Shown: positions 17,223 through 29,547, numbered from the stretch's first letter. The stretch: DNA of 64,000 nucleotides from an uncultured Chloroflexia bacterium (GCA_963701775.1 CAVPBH010000002.1:9340-73339), one strand, 5' to 3'. Made by a program: numbers and translations. The notes: generated from the sequence alone by a model not told the origin.

Positions 17223-18029
17223 ATGACGCAACCGCTCCGCATCGAGCCCGGCACCCAAGTCCACCTGGCCGACTTCGATCCCGCCTTTACCGGCGACTAC
17301 ACCGGCAAGAAAGAGGGCAAGAAGGTCGTCAAGCGCAACATCAAGCGACTCCGCAAGCTCCAGGACGTCCTCTGGGCCCAGGGCAAGCACGCCGTGCTCG
17401 TCATTCTCCAGGGCATTGACTCTGGCGGCAAGGACGGCACCATCGAGCATGTGATGGCCGGCATCAACCCGCAGGGCTGCCAGGTCACCGGCTTCAAGGT
17501 GCCCACCGCCGAAGAGATTTCCCACGACTACCTCTGGCGCATCCACAAAGTCACCCCGCGCCGCGGCTACATCGGCATCTTCAACCGCTCGCAATACGAG
17601 GATGTCCTCGTGGTCCGTGTCCACAACATCGTCCCGCCCGCGGTCTGGGCGCAGCGCTACGACCAGATCAACGCCTTCGAAAAGCACCTGGCCGAATGCG
17701 GCACGACGATCCTGAAATTCTTCCTCTACATCTCCAAGGAGGAGCAGAAGGCGCGCTTTGAGGCTCGTCTGGCCGACCCGGCGAAGAACTGGAAGTTCTC
17801 GATGGGCGACGTGGAGGAGCGGGCGCTTTGGCCCGAGTACATGGCGGCCTACGAGGAGGCGCTCACCCGCTGCAGCACGCCCTGGGCGCCCTGGTACGTG
17901 GTGCCGGCCAATCACAAGTGGTACCGCGACCTGGTCGTTTCTCAGGCCATCGTCGACACCCTGGAAGGGCTCGACCTGCAATACCCGCCGCCCCTCGAAA
18001 ACGCCGGCGAGATCGTGATCCCGGATTGA
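17223..18029 (+). CDS. ppk2: Polyphosphate kinase 2, class III-like
   Basis: QGIDSGGKDG, FKVPT.EE..HDYLWR, FNRSQYEDV, PWYVVPANHKW. Confidence 0.95.
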   Translation: MTQPLRIEPGTQVHLADFDPAFTGDYTGKKEGKKVVKRNIKRLRKLQDVLWAQGKHAVLVILQGIDSGGKDGTIEHVMAGINPQGCQVTGFKVPTAEEISHDYLWRIHKVTPRRGYIGIFNRSQYEDVLVVRVHNIVPPAVWAQRYDQINAFEKHLAECGTTILKFFLYISKEEQKARFEARLADPAKNWKFSMGDVEERALWPEYMAAYEEALTRCSTPWAPWYVVPANHKWYRDLVVSQAIVDTLEGLDLQYPPPLENAGEIVIPD

Positions 18030-19573
18030 ACCAGCCGGCCACCCCAGGCACGATTCTCCATAACAGGTACCGCATCCTGCGCTACATTGGCGGAGGCGGC
18101 TCGGCCTGGGTCTACCAGGTCGAGGAGCTGCCGGCCGGCAGCGGCCGCCTCTGGGCACTGAAGGAGCTGAGACCGCAGACGGAGGACCGCACGCAGCAGG
18201 CGGCCAACCAGAAGCTCTTTGAGCAGGAGGCGCGCCTCCTGCGCGACCTCGACCACCCGGCCATCCCCGACATAGCCGACTATTTCGAGGAACTGGGCCG
18301 CGCCTACCTGGTGATGGAGTTTGTCTGGGGCGAGTCGCTCGAAAAGAGACTTGAGAAGGCCAATGCGCCTCTCTTGGAGACGGACGTCTTGCACTGGGCC
18401 CTGCAGCTGTGCGATGCGCTCGAGTACCTGCACGGCCGCCAGCCGCCGATCATCTTCCGAGACCTGAAGCCGAGCAACGTCATGGTGGCCAACACCGGCC
18501 AGGTCAAGCTAATCGACTTTGGCATCGCCCGCACTTTCAAGGTCGGCAAGAAGCGCGACACGATCGCGATGGGCTCCGAGAACTACGCCGCGCCCGAGCA
18601 GTGGGGCAAGGGGCAGACCGACGCCCGCTCCGACGTCTATGCTCTGGGTGCCACGCTCTACCACCTTTTGGCCAACCTGGCGCCCACGCCGGCCTTCTTG
18701 CCCTCGGAGCCGCTGCCACTGGCCAACTACAACCAGGCGGTCTCTCGCCCCACCGTCGCCCTGATCGAGAAGGCGATGGCCCGCGAGCGCACCAAGCGCT
18801 TCCAGTCGATCGTCGAGATGCGCCGCGCGCTGGTGGCAGCCCTGCCGGCCGACGAGCAGCTCGCGGCCATGGCCCCGCCGCCGGCTGCGAGCAGCAAAGA
18901 GCCGGGCGCAGGGAGCCTTGCTCCGGTCGCACCGGCCAAGCCGCCTGTCGGGGGCAGCAAGCCACCGGTGCCGGCGGCCAAACAGCCGGCTCCGAAGCAG
19001 CCGCCCGCCGCGAGGAAGCCGGTCACCGTGCCGTCGTCCGCCAAAGCGAGCCCTACCTCCCTCCCCCCTGCCGCAGCGGGGGGGACGCAGGGGGGGGATT
19101 TCCACTCCCCCGCGCAGGGCGGGGGACAGGGTGCGAATGCCACTCCTTCACTCACCATCCCCTGCCCCGCCTGCAAGCGGTCAAACAAGGCCGGCGCGCG
19201 TTTTTGCGTTGGCTGCGGCCTGTCGCTCCAGCCCCTTCAGCCGCTCCGTCCGGCCGTCCTGCGTGTCGTCGAGCCGGTGCGCGCCGCCTGGGAGATGCCC
19301 GTCGCCCGCAGCCCGCTGCTCCTCGGTCGCGCCTCCGAGGCGGAGGAATACCGCCCCGACTTTGACATGACCTTCTACGACGACGGCGGCTACGTCTCGC
19401 GGCGCCACGCGCAGATCATCAAGGATGGCGCCGGCTATCTGATTTCCGACCTGGGCAGCAGCAACGGCACGCTTCTCAACGGCTACCCGCTCCTGCCCAA
19501 CCGATCCTACCGGCTACGCAACGGCGACCGGTTCAAAGTCGGGCTCGTCGTCATCGAGTTCCGGATGCGCTGA
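18026..19573 (+). CDS. Ser/Thr kinase K1: kinase - Pro/Ala linker - zinc ribbon - FHA
   Basis: GGGGS, ALKE, FRDLKPSN, DFG, APE; CPAC..FCVGC; LGR..VSRRHA..SSNGT; TTG start overlaps ppk2 TGA. Confidence 0.92.
   Translation: MNQPATPGTILHNRYRILRYIGGGGSAWVYQVEELPAGSGRLWALKELRPQTEDRTQQAANQKLFEQEARLLRDLDHPAIPDIADYFEELGRAYLVMEFVWGESLEKRLEKANAPLLETDVLHWALQLCDALEYLHGRQPPIIFRDLKPSNVMVANTGQVKLIDFGIARTFKVGKKRDTIAMGSENYAAPEQWGKGQTDARSDVYALGATLYHLLANLAPTPAFLPSEPLPLANYNQAVSRPTVALIEKAMARERTKRFQSIVEMRRALVAALPADEQLAAMAPPPAASSKEPGAGSLAPVAPAKPPVGGSKPPVPAAKQPAPKQPPAARKPVTVPSSAKASPTSLPPAAAGGTQGGDFHSPAQGGGQGANATPSLTIPCPACKRSNKAGARFCVGCGLSLQPLQPLRPAVLRVVEPVRAAWEMPVARSPLLLGRASEAEEYRPDFDMTFYDDGGYVSRRHAQIIKDGAGYLISDLGSSNGTLLNGYPLLPNRSYRLRNGDRFKVGLVVIEFRMR
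19058..19084 (+). repeat. In-frame C/G hairpin repeat copy 1 (encodes SLPPAAAGG)
   Basis: TCCCTCCCCCCTGCCGCAGCGGGGGGG identical at 22740 and 23232. Confidence 0.85.
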
Positions 19574-28286: not shown

Positions 28287-29547
28287 TTGCCCACGCTGCG
28301 GGGCGCCCGCCAAAACCGCGGCCCGCTTCTGTACCAAGTGCGGCGTCTCCCTGGTGCCGTCCCAGCCCAGCCCCAACCCGGCACGCCCTGCCGGCGCCTC
28401 GCTCCTGGCCGGCCGCTACCAGGTCATCGGCCAGCTAGGCCAGGGGGGCATGGGCGCCGTTCACCTGGCGCGCGACACGCAGCTCTTTGGCCGCCTCTGC
28501 ATTGTCAAGCAGATGCACGCGGCCTTCCTGAGCCAGAGTGAGCGCCGCAAAGCTGAGGAGGATTTCCAGCGCGAGGCGGCGGTCCTGGCCAGCCTCAACC
28601 AGCCCGGCCATCCCCGTATCCCCGAGGTGTATGGCTACTTTGTCGAGGGCGGCGACCGCTACCTGGTGATGAAGTACATCGAAGGTGAGAGCCTCGAGAG
28701 CCGCCTGGCGCGCCTGAAGGAGCCCCTGGCCGAGGCCGAGGTGATCCGCTGTGCGCTCGAGGTCGCCGACGCCCTCGTCTACCTCCACAGCCGCAAGCCC
28801 GAGCCGGTCATCCACCGCGACATCAAGCCGGCCAACATCCTCCTCGATCCCGAGAACCGTATCTGGCTGGTCGACTTCGGCCTGGCACGTGCCATCACCA
28901 GCGCCGGTGCCCGCATCATGGCCGCGGGTGGGCGCACCGTCGCCGCCGGCACGCCCGGCTACACACCACTCGAACAGTGGCAGATGCAGTCGTCGCCCAA
29001 GTCGGATATCTATGCCCTGGGCGCGACCATGCACCACCTGCTCACCAACCAGGACCCGCGCGACCGCTTCGCTTCCTACGACGAGCTTGACCTCGGGCTG
29101 CTGCGCTCGCTGTCGCCCTTGCCTTCCCTCGCCCTGGTCCGGCCCGACGTCAGGCCCGCCCTGGCGGCCTTGGTCAACCGCTGCCTCGATCCCGACCCAC
29201 GCTCCCGGCCCTCGGCCGCCGAGCTCAAGGTCGAGCTGGACCGGCTGGTTCCGACAGGCAGCCGCTTCTTCGAGACGGTCCAGCGCTGGAGCCCGACCCT
29301 CGGCGAGATGATCGGCGTGGCAGCAGCCTCCTTCGTGCGCATGCTCTTCGGGCGCCCCGCCCGCCCCCGCCGGGAGCCGGCCCCCACCACCACGAGGCCG
29401 ACCCGCTCGGCTGCCGCGCGCGAGCGACGCCGTGAGCGCGAGGCGGGCCCGGAGATCTCGTGCCTGCTCTGCAACGGGCAGGGCGTTCTCCGCGACGGCA
29501 GAGATTGCCCCGTCTGCCGCGGCACCGGCTACTGGTTTCGCGAGTAG
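28279..29547 (+). CDS. Ser/Thr kinase K4: zinc ribbon - RD kinase - C-terminal CxxCxGxG zinc finger
   Basis: GQGGMG, HRDIKPAN, DFG, GTPGY; CLLCNGQG...CPVCRGTG. Confidence 0.92.
   Translation: MPDCPRCGAPAKTAARFCTKCGVSLVPSQPSPNPARPAGASLLAGRYQVIGQLGQGGMGAVHLARDTQLFGRLCIVKQMHAAFLSQSERRKAEEDFQREAAVLASLNQPGHPRIPEVYGYFVEGGDRYLVMKYIEGESLESRLARLKEPLAEAEVIRCALEVADALVYLHSRKPEPVIHRDIKPANILLDPENRIWLVDFGLARAITSAGARIMAAGGRTVAAGTPGYTPLEQWQMQSSPKSDIYALGATMHHLLTNQDPRDRFASYDELDLGLLRSLSPLPSLALVRPDVRPALAALVNRCLDPDPRSRPSAAELKVELDRLVPTGSRFFETVQRWSPTLGEMIGVAAASFVRMLFGRPARPRREPAPTTTRPTRSAAARERRREREAGPEISCLLCNGQGVLRDGRDCPVCRGTGYWFRE

Follow-up and report, generated by a model that had tools for sequence, protein, structure and literature searches.

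A candidate ArnA/ArnB-type phosphothreonine switch with multiplied kinases and phosphatases in a Chloroflexia bacterium

The T6SS proteins PpkA/PppA/Fha1 and the actinobacterial FhaA/FhaB-PstP-PknA/PknB set each combine a Hanks kinase, a PP2C phosphatase and an FHA protein, and PpkA also has a vWA domain. FraH of Anabaena sp. PCC 7120 consists of an N-terminal zinc ribbon (ZnR), a proline-rich region and a C-terminal FHA domain.

The ArnA/ArnB pair, which represses motility in Sulfolobus acidocaldarius, has been characterised structurally and biochemically (PDB 8S05, 5A8J, 5A8I; PMC6509490, PMC12852372). According to these papers, the ArnAB module works with the kinases ArnC and ArnD and the phosphatase PP2A. 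Bacterial counterparts are under study in Deinococcus and in Anabaena. The Deinococcus radiodurans operon DRA0331-DRA0334 encodes a vWA protein, an STPK, an FHA protein and a KI-FHA-PP2C protein. An antagonism between FHA and PP2C is reported, and the FHA protein is called a FraH orthologue (10.64898/2026.01.23.701218). In Anabaena, FraH binds the partner Alr4359, which bears the phosphothreonines pT362 and pT410, and a kinase and a phosphatase co-purify (PMC9035410, PMC11500504). TerY-P, a predicted phosphorylation switch, is made of a TerY-like vWA protein, a PP2C and an STK-ZnR (Anantharaman et al. 2012 and Gao et al. 2020, as cited in PMC10542128). Finally, PMC12852372 counts a structural-genomics entry, 4FX5 (a vWA protein of Catenulispora acidiphila), among ArnB-like bacterial structures.

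Here we analyse a gene cluster of an uncultured Chloroflexia bacterium. We propose, with a probability of roughly 0.65, that it is a vertically inherited chromosomal operon for an ArnA/ArnB-type phosphothreonine switch with multiplied writers (kinases) and erasers (phosphatases). Such an operon would belong to a type of signalling module that is already known, in a larger and bacterial form. The domain content, the linkage and conservation of the genes, the fold shared with ArnB and the integrity of the catalytic and MIDAS motifs are all computational results; architectures come from Pfam together with motif and hydropathy (Kyte-Doolittle) scans.

Layout of the gene run

Positions 17223 to 29547 of the window (the whole 64-kb stretch of DNA that was analysed) hold nine co-oriented, closely packed genes on the + strand. 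They are a PPK2 gene and eight signalling genes: four protein kinases (K1 to K4), two PP2C phosphatases (P1 and P2), a vWA scaffold and a ZnR-FHA reader. The boundaries are exact, with the PPK2 start at 17223 and the K4 stop at 29547. Neighbouring genes are spaced by -8 to +52 nt. At K2/K3, K3/P2 (ATGA-type) and P2/K4 the start codon overlaps the preceding stop, as does the TTG start of K1 (18026) with the PPK2 stop codon. Consensus matching across 16700-30000 yields two promoter-like sites, which flank the gene run (mean of 0.4 in shuffled sequences), and none within it. The upstream site, a sigma-70-like match TTGCCA-17-TATACT (17147-17175, + strand; a consensus match only), lies in the 314-nt gap before PPK2. 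The other (29622-29649) lies 5' of the next gene, an acyl-CoA dehydrogenase (ACAD).

The original prediction of a contiguous eight-gene kinase/PP2C/vWA/FHA/ZnR run headed by PPK2 is thus borne out by Pfam and motif scans, with PPK2 itself outside the widely conserved unit. The PPK2-family polyphosphate kinase (17223-18029, 268 aa; Pfam PF03976, E 1.7e-72) passes NCBIfam TIGR03709 with 392.9 bits (cut-off 247.2). Its gene is found upstream of vWA in 11/46 examinable loci (among the best 80 of 202), and in each of these the vWA protein reaches at least 77% identity. Although PPK2 comes first in this genome, it is a neighbour specific to the family and no core member.

All four kinases keep the catalytic Lys, xxDxKxxN and DFG in a motif scan, and the catalytic motifs of the kinases and PP2Cs are intact. 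K1 (18026-19573) is a Hanks-type Ser/Thr kinase (Pfam Pkinase 1.1e-41) followed by a ZnR at residues 380-397 and an FHA domain (1.2e-14). This FHA domain and the one in the ZnR-FHA protein share 36% identity (E 2e-16); in effect K1 is a kinase with an ArnA-like ZnR-FHA module attached. P1 (19593-21185) places two ZnRs (residues 3-20 and 186-204; Pfam DZR 2e-09), separated by a Pro-rich linker, ahead of its PP2C domain (PP2C_2 3.1e-15), and two ZnRs are present in 53/70 orthologous frames. P2 (27435-28286; PP2C_2 9.6e-20) is a stand-alone phosphatase, 40% identical to the catalytic domain of P1 (blastp, E 4.6e-50).

K2 (23674-25521, with the ORF open from 23590) consists of a ZnR of the variant CxxxxC...CxxC, a kinase domain (Pkinase 3.2e-28), a helical domain, an Ig domain and a two-helix hairpin. 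The start GTG 23674 is more likely than ATG 23590, because the resulting N-terminus M-L-C-P matches the N-termini of the other ZnR proteins. The N-terminal ZnR is kept in 62/67 K2-type frames. The Ig domain appears to be of the PapD/MSP type (AF2 pLDDT 88; Foldseek matches to HYDIN PapD-like domains, TM to target 0.70-0.77). The 643-aa frame has hydrophobic peaks at residues 566-576 and 605-616 (Kyte-Doolittle), a predicted C-terminal hairpin that agrees with the earlier view of K2 as the only member that looks membrane-anchored. K4 (28279-29547; Pkinase 2.6e-40) has an N-terminal ZnR, an Arg-rich linker and a C-terminal zinc finger with two CxxCxGxG motifs (DnaJ/anti-TRAP-like), the latter found in 10/10 orthologues whose alignment reaches the C-terminus. 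It matches NCBIfam RtpA weakly, under the cut-off (E 4.6e-4). As originally stated, a Pfam search of the cluster proteins found no PASTA, extracellular sensor or DNA-binding domain.

The vWA hub, the reader and their known relatives

The vWA protein (21238-22491, 417 aa; Pfam VWA 1.1e-17) has a complete MIDAS (D51, S53, S55, T118, D148), which is invariant across 50 orthologues. In the AF2 model (pLDDT 92.4, pTM 0.87) the vWA domain sits inserted in a beta-sandwich, and a four-helix C-terminal domain follows. Foldseek against the PDB gives 4fx5 as the best whole-length match (E 4.6e-32, TM 0.73/0.72, 436 aligned columns, 18% identity). ArnB in the ArnAB complex (8s05, chains A/B) aligns with TM 0.64/0.69 and 0.63/0.68; 5a8j is also among the top matches, and Sec23/24 chains come after. 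A profile of the vWA family finds 8s05_A among PDB sequences at E 5.2e-17. Sequence identity to ArnB is 20%, with a significant alignment over the vWA domain only. As modelled, the protein has the three-domain ArnB fold, a likeness at the level of fold and superfamily only.

The C-terminal helical domain is the most conserved part of the hub (mean column identity 0.78 versus 0.59-0.67 elsewhere). Threonines T340, T346, T369, T408 and T412 are conserved at 0.90-1.0, and the last 103 residues match no Pfam family at E < 0.01.

The ZnR-FHA reader (22518-23645; Pfam FHA 4.6e-16) resembles ArnA and FraH. Its four ZnRs (Zn_Ribbon_1 7.5e-21 in four stretches) lie at residues 4, 47, 117 and 213, the linkers are 53% Pro+Ala, and GR, SxxH and N, the FHA motifs, can be read in the C-terminal FHA domain. 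Of 74 orthologous frames, 71 have three or four ZnRs, and the N-terminal ribbon of the family has the consensus M-x-x-C-P-N-C-G. The solved FHA domains nearest to the reader in a PDB sequence search are those of GarA/OdhI; the ArnA FHA structure 5a8i is not among the matches at E <= 0.01. Searched with a loose motif, the whole genome shows about 20 further ZnR copies, spread over at least 15 other open frames (among them AIM24-ZnR, ZnR-ZnR-WD40 and a further kinase-ZnR). The ribbon is not private to the locus and may therefore be a general-purpose module.

The original prediction had missed that the vWA and ZnR-FHA proteins are an ArnB/ArnA-type pair. As in ArnAB, a tripartite hub combines a MIDAS vWA domain in a beta-sandwich with a Thr-bearing C-terminal helical domain, the neighbouring gene encodes a zinc-ribbon and FHA reader (ArnA is ZnF plus FHA), Hanks-type kinases would write and a Ser/Thr phosphatase would erase, and neither hub nor reader has a DNA-binding domain. 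Unlike ArnAB, the system is bacterial, the hub is only distantly related and the reader FHA is nearer to GarA/OdhI. The reader has four ribbons where ArnA has one. Writers and erasers are encoded in the same operon, are multiplied (four kinases, two PP2Cs) and carry the same ribbon, and K1 has a fused ZnR-FHA module of its own. The phosphatases here are PP2Cs, whereas Sulfolobus uses PP2A.

The Deinococcus operon shares the four components vWA, kinase, FHA and PP2C, and its vWA protein is distantly homologous over the full length, with 28% identity across residues 60-371. It differs in gene order, in having a single phosphatase and a single kinase, the latter with C-terminal TM helices (10.64898/2026.01.23.701218), and in a phosphatase with an FHA-like domain in place of zinc ribbons. 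Of the five conserved hub threonines, the Deinococcus and Gloeothece homologues keep T412 alone. The FraH/Alr4359/CurT homologue (Alr4119) system likewise has an FHA reader with an N-terminal C-P-N-C: the fraH forward primer given in PMC9035410 encodes M-I-V-C-P-N-C, which fits the consensus ribbon of the reader family. The Anabaena partners are not reported to form one operon, and the phenotype concerns heterocyst honeycomb membranes and filament integrity (PMC9035410, PMC11500504).

TerY-P systems, as described in PMC10542128, have the composition of K1-P1-vWA, in which a vWA protein, a PP2C and a kinase with a ZnR C-terminal to the kinase domain lie side by side. Yet they have no FHA reader, and the vWA protein here has a long ArnB-type extension of beta-sandwich and helices. 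No ter genes, restriction genes or effectors lie near the locus, which is conserved and syntenic rather than island-like. The T6SS and FhaA/FhaB clusters share the combination of Hanks kinase, PP2C and FHA protein, but the NCBIfam scores of the cluster proteins are far under the cut-offs (VI_FHA 34.8-41.8 versus 120 bits, FhaB 39.6-46.7 versus 125, PknB_PASTA 120-193 versus 450), and no T6SS, rodA or pbpA gene occurs in the 64-kb window. The exact eight-gene architecture appears to be uncharacterised, as originally supposed; we found no full-text paper that joins ArnB, FHA and Chloroflex.

Conservation, proposed mechanism and alternatives

Linkage was counted in the best 80 of 202 genome loci, with the examinable loci as denominators. 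In this set the ZnR-FHA gene follows the vWA gene in 61/64 loci, a PP2C gene lies immediately upstream in 49/65 and a kinase gene within 4 kb upstream in 47/52. All four genes occur together in 32/43; several of the misses are Chloroflexia loci ordered PP2C-PP2C-kinase-vWA-FHA. The genes are co-conserved, as the original prediction needed them to be. Of twelve loci from relatives, five have the full order K1-P1-vWA-FHA-K2-K3-P2-K4; in a sixth the contig ends inside P1 and everything from P1 to K4 is present. The core of kinase, PP2C, vWA and ZnR-FHA is linked across Chloroflexota, and the full eight-gene form is found in this family and its near relatives. Herpetosiphon and Roseiflexus, both cultivable, also carry the vWA family. 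Distant vWA homologues (25-31% identity) lie in vWA/kinase/FHA/PP2C clusters of D. radiodurans and Gloeothece.

The locus is flanked upstream by a glycosyl hydrolase, VIT1 and an LPG-synthase-like gene, and downstream by the ACAD gene and glycosyltransferases; synteny with the ACAD/GT2 neighbours holds across genera. Across genera, 19/22 genomes of the family have a vWA protein with 77-94% identity, a level of conservation close to that of the adjacent ACAD (81-92%). In a sample of the phylum the vWA gene is all-or-none by family (13/13, 13/13 and 3/3 versus 0/13 and 0/13 at E <= 1e-60).

From the analogy with ArnAB we infer how such a switch would work. K1 to K4 would phosphorylate the conserved threonines in the C-terminal helices of the hub. 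The FHA domain of the reader would clamp onto the resulting phosphothreonines. If the FHA domain fused to K1 does the same, multi-site phosphorylation would depend on priming and become switch-like. P1 and P2 would reset the hub. Zinc ribbons occur on seven of the eight signalling proteins and may keep the partners in loose contact with the hub in its unphosphorylated state, much as the zinc finger of ArnA binds to ArnB; the helical hairpin of K2 could tether part of the system to the membrane. There is no archaellum here; therefore the output must differ from that of ArnAB. It is not encoded in the operon and would most likely consist in altered protein assembly, brought about for example by zinc ribbons that are released or by the free MIDAS face; direct DNA binding is less likely. 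A linked output gene was not found among the best 80 of 202 loci, where the commonest extra neighbour is an FHA-FHA-ABC transporter (9/80) with no full-length counterpart in this genome. Of the original view of a cytoplasmic phospho-switch, the self-contained set of writers, erasers, readers and scaffold, larger than a TerY-P triad, is supported; immunity is unlikely.

Alternatively, there may be no single machine. The syntenic cluster would then be an ArnAB-like core plus tandemly duplicated kinases and a phosphatase that act on unlinked substrates, with the ZnR as a general localisation module, as its spread to other open frames of the genome would allow. The accessory part is indeed modular: two loci of genus g15 (L014, L015) end after K2 despite 8.6 kb of further sequence, a third locus (L022) is without P2 and K4, and a downstream PP2C occurs in just 11/42 examinable loci (best 80 of 202). 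K2/K3 (50% identity) and P1/P2 also resemble local duplications. However, the codon overlaps at K2/K3, K3/P2 and P2/K4 and the lack of a promoter-like site within the run speak against separate genes. So do the order K2-K3-P2-K4, which this family has kept in common with a second one of the class (L021, L043), and the N-terminal ZnR that each added kinase retains. We consider this explanation unlikely.

A further reading keeps the phosphothreonine switch but dedicates it to a specific stress or DNA-damage response (as proposed for Deinococcus DRA0331-0334 and for Saccharolobus islandicus ArnA) or to membrane or septum remodelling in filaments (as for Anabaena FraH). The authors of the Deinococcus study tie their operon to the radiation-responsive kinase RqkA (10.64898/2026.01.23.701218), and loss of FraH fragments filaments and abolishes honeycomb membranes (PMC9035410, PMC11500504). 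The predicted membrane anchor of K2 also counts in favour of this reading. Yet genes for repair, division or the septum are not linked to the locus in the 64-kb window, nor do they recur in the best 80 of 202 loci, and some families of the same class have no close vWA homologue (0/13 at E <= 1e-60). Such a dedicated role is quite improbable; filament development, as first suggested, is a possibility by analogy with FraH alone.

The suggested role in immunity, a TerY-P kind of anti-phage or conflict system in which a vWA-PP2C-kinase threshold switch licenses abortive infection or restriction, is very unlikely: synteny is conserved, the vWA protein is almost as conserved as a housekeeping protein, and no nuclease, NTPase or other effector lies within or next to the cluster, whose flanks are housekeeping genes. 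PADLOC models do match the kinases strongly (PD-T4-6 up to 3.8e-59, mad6 5.5e-62) and the PP2Cs (candidate model PDC-M21C, 1e-10 to 1e-11), but these matches reflect generic kinase and PP2C similarity, and no model matched the vWA, ZnR-FHA or PPK2 proteins. The all-or-none distribution by family fits vertical inheritance, unlike that of patchy defence islands.

The frameshift in K3

K3 (25518-27438, frameshifted) is a paralogue of K2, to which its ZnR-kinase part is 50% identical, and has no membrane segment. A 1-base insertion near 26472-26476 breaks the gene: frame 0 stays in register up to about 26471, and from about 26476 onwards it is the +1 frame that shows the homology. There is one extra base compared with a genome of the same genus, contigs of three public runs (two studies) have one base fewer at 26475, and the frame is intact in locus L013 and in other orthologues. 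Because dnaK in the same window is also split, the frameshift is probably an assembly error.

K3 had been described as ZnR-kinase-X-Ig-Ig. The ZnR, the kinase and one Ig-like domain hold, with a helical domain between kinase and Ig; in this assembly they are not in one open frame. The second Ig-like domain is tentative (PF21577 25.2 bits versus a cut-off of 27; PapD-like E 0.0014). Weak PapD-like and PG_0320-like_C matches span the final 112 residues of K3.

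The hub and its reader in a nine-gene run

The window spans 64 kb with 67% GC, and its contig, C2, belongs to a 5.0-Mb genome in 33 contigs. The closest public relatives are MAGs with the labels Anaerolineae or Chloroflexota. Nine genes follow each other on the plus strand between 17223 and 29547, and their junctions measure -8 to +52 nt. We assigned their domains with Pfam, with motif and hydropathy scans and with two structure predictions, which bear out nearly every domain call of the original prediction.

The run opens at 17223 with PPK2 (PF03976, E 1.7e-72; the TIGR03709 cut-off is also passed). 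K1 starts at a TTG at 18026, overlapping the PPK2 stop codon, and joins a kinase, a zinc ribbon (ZnR) and an FHA domain. The phosphatase P1 follows with two ribbons and a PP2C domain, and then the hub, a vWA protein of 417 aa whose MIDAS motif is complete. The gene for the reader lies 26 nt downstream of the hub and encodes four ribbons on Pro/Ala-rich linkers (53% Pro+Ala) and an FHA domain. K2, which probably starts at GTG 23674, consists of a ribbon, a kinase, a helical domain, an Ig domain and two hydrophobic helices at the C-terminus. K3 has a ribbon, a kinase, a helical domain, an Ig domain and a second, weakly supported Ig-like domain. P2 is a PP2C phosphatase. K4, ending at 29547, carries a ribbon, a kinase and a CxxCxGxG x2 zinc finger, a motif retained in all 10 orthologues that reach the C-terminus.

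According to the motif scan, the catalytic motifs are intact in all four kinases. K2 has an Ig domain of the PapD/MSP/HYDIN type (TM to target 0.70-0.77). For its helical domain a Pfam search gave no match even at E <= 10, and the best ESM Atlas match to the helical and Ig region, DUF5717_N at 0.84, is under the 0.9 level and serves as a lead only. Pfam detects no DNA-binding, PASTA or extracellular domain in the cluster proteins, and none of the eight signalling proteins reaches a curated equivalog cut-off in NCBIfam. Only two promoter-like matches occur in 16700-30000, one on either side of the run; this is compatible with, though no proof of, a single PPK2-to-K4 transcript.

The hub has the tripartite fold of ArnB, the vWA hub of Sulfolobus: a vWA domain inserted in a beta-sandwich, and a C-terminal helical domain. 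In the AF2 model (pLDDT 92.4) the vWA domain sits between strands 5-33 and 220-319, with helices 330-410 coming after. Foldseek returns the Catenulispora vWA protein 4FX5 as the best full-length match (TM 0.73). ArnB in the ArnAB complex (8s05_A) is matched at E 1.5e-27 and TM 0.64/0.69 and the ArnB paralogue 5A8J at E 3.9e-23; Sec23/24 rank next. The ZnR/FHA partner adjoining an ArnB is here the reader, with its four ribbons and FHA domain. By fold and by the adjacent ZnR-FHA gene, hub and reader are thus an ArnB/ArnA-type pair, which the original prediction missed.

The relation to ArnA and ArnB is one of architecture and fold, not of orthology. The hub family profile matches the 8s05_A sequence at E 5.2e-17 in the vWA domain, but the C-terminal part of the hub has no significant alignment with it (i-E 7.5e+02), and ArnA (5a8i) is not among the PDB sequence matches of the reader at E <= 0.01.

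The MIDAS residues D51, S53, S55, T118 and D148 of the hub do not vary among 50 orthologues, and the helical domain is better conserved than any other part of the protein (mean column identity 0.78 vs 0.59-0.67 elsewhere). Within it T340, T346, T369, T408 and T412, with conservation of 0.90-1.0, are candidate phosphosites; a conserved Leu stands at +3 after four of the five. Of these threonines only T412 is shared with the Deinococcus and Gloeothece homologues. The last 103 residues have chance-level Pfam matches only at E <= 10 (SbsC spectrin-like 0.016, PspA_IM30 0.021).

Linkage, distribution and output

An orthologue of the hub with 75-94% identity is present in 19 of the 22 genomes of the family. 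The order PPK2-K1-P1-vWA-reader-K2-K3-P2-K4-ACAD-GT2 is found again in other genera, and K3-P2-K4 are absent from one genus (g15). No other gene of the cluster is as conserved as the hub: identities in other genera of the family are 78-80% for the hub, 45-54% for P1, 50-60% for the reader and 57-62% for K2. The neighbouring ACAD is 81-85% identical.

In contigs from one genome per species, 202 loci encode a relative of the hub, and we examined the best 80 of them (one is labelled Planctomycetota). Such a neighbourhood survey across Chloroflexota had been suggested as a check on the cluster, and it finds the core genes linked. Counting those of the best 80 loci with enough flank, the hub gene is followed by a ZnR-FHA gene in 61 of 64, a kinase is encoded upstream at a distance of at most 4 kb in 47 of 52, and the gene immediately upstream is a PP2C in 49 of 65. 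Kinase, PP2C, hub and ZnR-FHA, the four components together, are present in 32 of 43. PPK2 is found upstream in only 11 of 46 loci of this set, all from the family of the window, and a downstream PP2C in 11 of 42. Roseiflexus-type loci read PP2C-PP2C-kinase-vWA-reader. Two Herpetosiphonaceae loci (L103, 5463-11239; L104, 5848-11242) each carry a tandem of three vWA paralogues, which share 31-50% identity with the hub, with PP2C between them and no ZnR-FHA or kinase match in the 10 kb downstream.

At E <= 1e-60 the hub is matched in 47 of 201 Chloroflexota genomes (an even sample, at least 85% complete). Families have it in all of their sampled genomes or in none: 13/13, 13/13 and 3/3 vs 0/13 and 0/13.

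Additional copies of parts of the system occur in relatives. Locus L034 (G009:C73) has a second, inverted module at 11-4654 on the minus strand, about 5-10 kb upstream of the main cluster, with a kinase, a PP2C, a vWA paralogue (37% identity) and a ZnR-FHA gene. A vWA paralogue of 33-41% identity, an open frame of about 500 aa, is found in most genomes of the family and not in that of the window.

The cluster is flanked by housekeeping genes in a synteny that is conserved across genera, and neither cluster nor flanks contain an effector. The host is a bacterium and the window contains no motility genes; hence the output must differ from the archaellum control exerted by ArnAB. When the 1368 flank ORFs of the 80 loci are clustered, no family occurs in more than 9 of 80 and no output gene is linked. 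Nor is a membrane-remodelling gene linked to the cluster, in the flanks of the window or among these flank ORFs. We rejected an FHA-FHA-ABC transporter as a general output, because it occurs at 9 of 80 loci and has no full-length counterpart in the genome of the window. This transporter (ABC_tran + ABC2_membrane, 831 aa) lies at 4068-6563 (+) of locus L059 and also in L030, L040, L046, L055, L057, L065, L089 and L090, which are scattered lineages. We take it to be reminiscent of the mycobacterial Rv1747.

Immunity, one of the functions suggested by the original prediction, is very unlikely. The TerY-P composition of vWA, PP2C and STK-ZnR, as given in PMC10542128, is matched by K1-P1-vWA. However, the TerY-P description accounts neither for the FHA reader and the ArnB-type extension nor for the way the cluster behaves across genomes. 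PADLOC, whose set may not contain TerY-P models, returns generic kinase matches only (PD-T4-6, mad6, MkoA, PglW) and one candidate PP2C model, PDC-M21C; no model matches hub, reader or PPK2. Housekeeping flanks, stable synteny, family-wise presence and the lack of an effector in cluster and flanks all argue against defence. The hub also evolves slowly, at about the pace of a metabolic enzyme, and we find neither a patchy distribution nor an association with ter, restriction or DNA-processing genes or defence islands. Generic kinase HMM matches are therefore poor ground for calling vWA/PP2C/kinase neighbourhoods defence systems.

Elsewhere in the window, two adjacent large genes with PKD repeats at 41730-47240 (-) appear to encode secreted or surface proteins. 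One of the two products, of 1284 aa, additionally has beta-propeller (lactonase/YncE-like) and weak InhA-like MAM matches.

A proposed phosphothreonine switch

In Sulfolobus, ArnC phosphorylates ArnB on threonines of the C-terminal helical domain. As long as ArnB is unphosphorylated, the zinc finger of ArnA docks on its beta-sandwich and helical domain; the ArnA FHA domain binds phosphorylated ArnB (PMC6509490 and PMC12852372).

We propose that the cluster is an ArnAB-like phosphothreonine switch. Beyond domain content, fold and linkage, we infer the following steps. K1-K4 would write phosphothreonines on the helical domain of the hub, and the FHA domains of the reader and of K1 would bind them. 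The K1 ZnR-FHA module is paralogous to that of the reader (FHA 36% identical, E 2e-16), and through its own FHA domain K1 would gain priming-dependent processivity. P1 and P2 would erase the marks, the ribbons would provide loose docking and K2 would serve as the membrane anchor. The phospho-switch of the original prediction is retained in this proposal, with a core of a known kind, the ArnAB type.

The T6SS threonine-phosphorylation pathway is no match: its FHA model TIGR03354 scores only 34.8-41.8 bits here vs a cut-off of 120.25, and the window has no T6SS genes.

Distant full-length homologues of the hub, with 25-31% identity, occur in Deinococcus and cyanobacteria (tblastn, plasmid/megaplasmid records). 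In D. radiodurans the vWA homologue heads a run of vWA / kinase / hypothetical + FHA / PP2C, in agreement with the DRA0331-0334 operon. For this operon, a 2026 preprint reports that FHA and PP2C act antagonistically on kinases, and its authors regard the FHA protein as a FraH orthologue (10.64898/2026.01.23.701218). The Gloeothece run reads vWA / FHA / PP2C / FHA-kinase. FraH has a zinc ribbon at the N-terminus, a Pro-rich linker and an FHA domain at the C-terminus. The reader has the same architecture, with its N-terminal ribbons, Pro-rich linker and C-terminal FHA, and the N-terminal C-P-N-C of FraH can be read from a published primer. In Anabaena, the binding partners of FraH include Alr4359 (pT362, pT410) and a CurT homologue, and FraH co-purifies with a kinase and a phosphatase (PMC9035410). 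In fraH mutants honeycomb membranes are lost and filaments fragment (PMC9035410 and PMC11500504).

A single type of ribbon (C-P-x-C-G ... F-C-x-x-C-G) is present in 10 copies on seven of the eight signalling proteins. It is kept on their orthologues across Chloroflexota; in orthologous frames the reader has 3-4 ribbons in 71 of 74, P1 has two in 53 of 70 and K2-type kinases have one in 62 of 67. The ribbon could be an address tag, with writers, erasers and the four-ribbon reader docking on one ArnB-like hub. They would form a multivalent, membrane-tethered 'signalosome', its assembly state set by competing ribbon and FHA-phosphothreonine contacts. We consider this extension of the switch unlikely. 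A whole-genome motif scan finds about 20 further copies of the same ribbon type, spread over at least 15 open frames outside the cluster, which weakens the idea of a docking tag. In the address-tag reading these proteins (AIM24-ZnR, ZnR-WD40, another kinase and others) would be clients. A complex prediction of the hub with the first ribbon of the reader (residues 1-36), run without controls, gives ipSAE 0.01 and 0.06 vs a mark of 0.32, which speaks neither for nor against docking. Were the reading true, the ArnAB principle would be a general ribbon-coded recruitment system in bacteria and the K1 FHA domain a switch-like feedback.

Ribbon-bearing proteins elsewhere in the genome include a ZnR-ZnR-WD40 propeller (G000:C11:132026-133204, -), an AIM24-domain protein (G000:C10:5018-6433, +) and another kinase, with a C-terminal ribbon (G000:C11:123470-124525, +). 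Several small proteins with the same ribbon have no other recognisable domain.

In the literature we searched, the exact eight-gene, ribbon-tagged form with four kinases and two phosphatases is not described, consistent with the original prediction, which did not recognise the architecture as characterised. A full-text search found nothing linking ArnB, Chloroflex and FHA together. So far ArnA/ArnB have been well dissected in one archaeal lineage only, where their direct output is still unknown. The locus shows an ArnAB-type hub-reader pair as a deeply conserved, vertically inherited Chloroflexota operon, with cognate kinases and phosphatases encoded alongside and with a common zinc-ribbon module. 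It ties scattered bacterial cases (Deinococcus DRA0331-0334, Anabaena FraH) to a structural model. Its compact set of presumed players, four writers, two erasers, two FHA readers and one hub, would permit in-vitro reconstitution of multi-site phosphothreonine switching.

Split reading frames in K3 and elsewhere

The eight-gene cluster of the original prediction holds, except that K3 is not one open frame. Its kinase half (frame 0) and its helical/Ig half (+1 frame) are parted by one extra base near 26472-26476. K3 is single-frame in a genome of the same genus (L013) and in all other orthologues, so we rejected programmed frameshifting. Contigs from three public runs (two studies), 92-95% alike to the window, are without one base at 26475; they derive from relatives and thus show relatives without the extra base, not the read state of this strain. 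The best share of sampled window words in a public run is 0.34, and no run reached half.

The dnaK gene is also split across two frames, at 36705-38796 (+): HSP70 profile positions 1-395 fall in 36705-38429 and positions 403-598 in 38116-38796. It lies downstream of hrcA (35265-36308) and is followed by dnaJ (38824-39948) and prmA (39948-40913). A frameshift in an essential chaperone gene indicates indel errors in the assembly. Because dnaK is split as well, and because the relatives are single-frame and without the extra base, the K3 frameshift is a probable assembly indel and not a pseudogene.

In a relative's locus (L049, contig CAVVMX010000025.1, 5865-20356) the cluster lies in many short frame-shifted pieces, with nearly every gene affected. 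The pattern suggests a long-read assembly of low accuracy, not decay of the genes. Finally, at 50001-53983 (-) of the window two long open frames (724 and 775 aa) on the same strand overlap by about 520 nt, with no Pfam match at E <= 1e-5. They may be another frameshifted large gene, family unknown, or one real and one spurious ORF.
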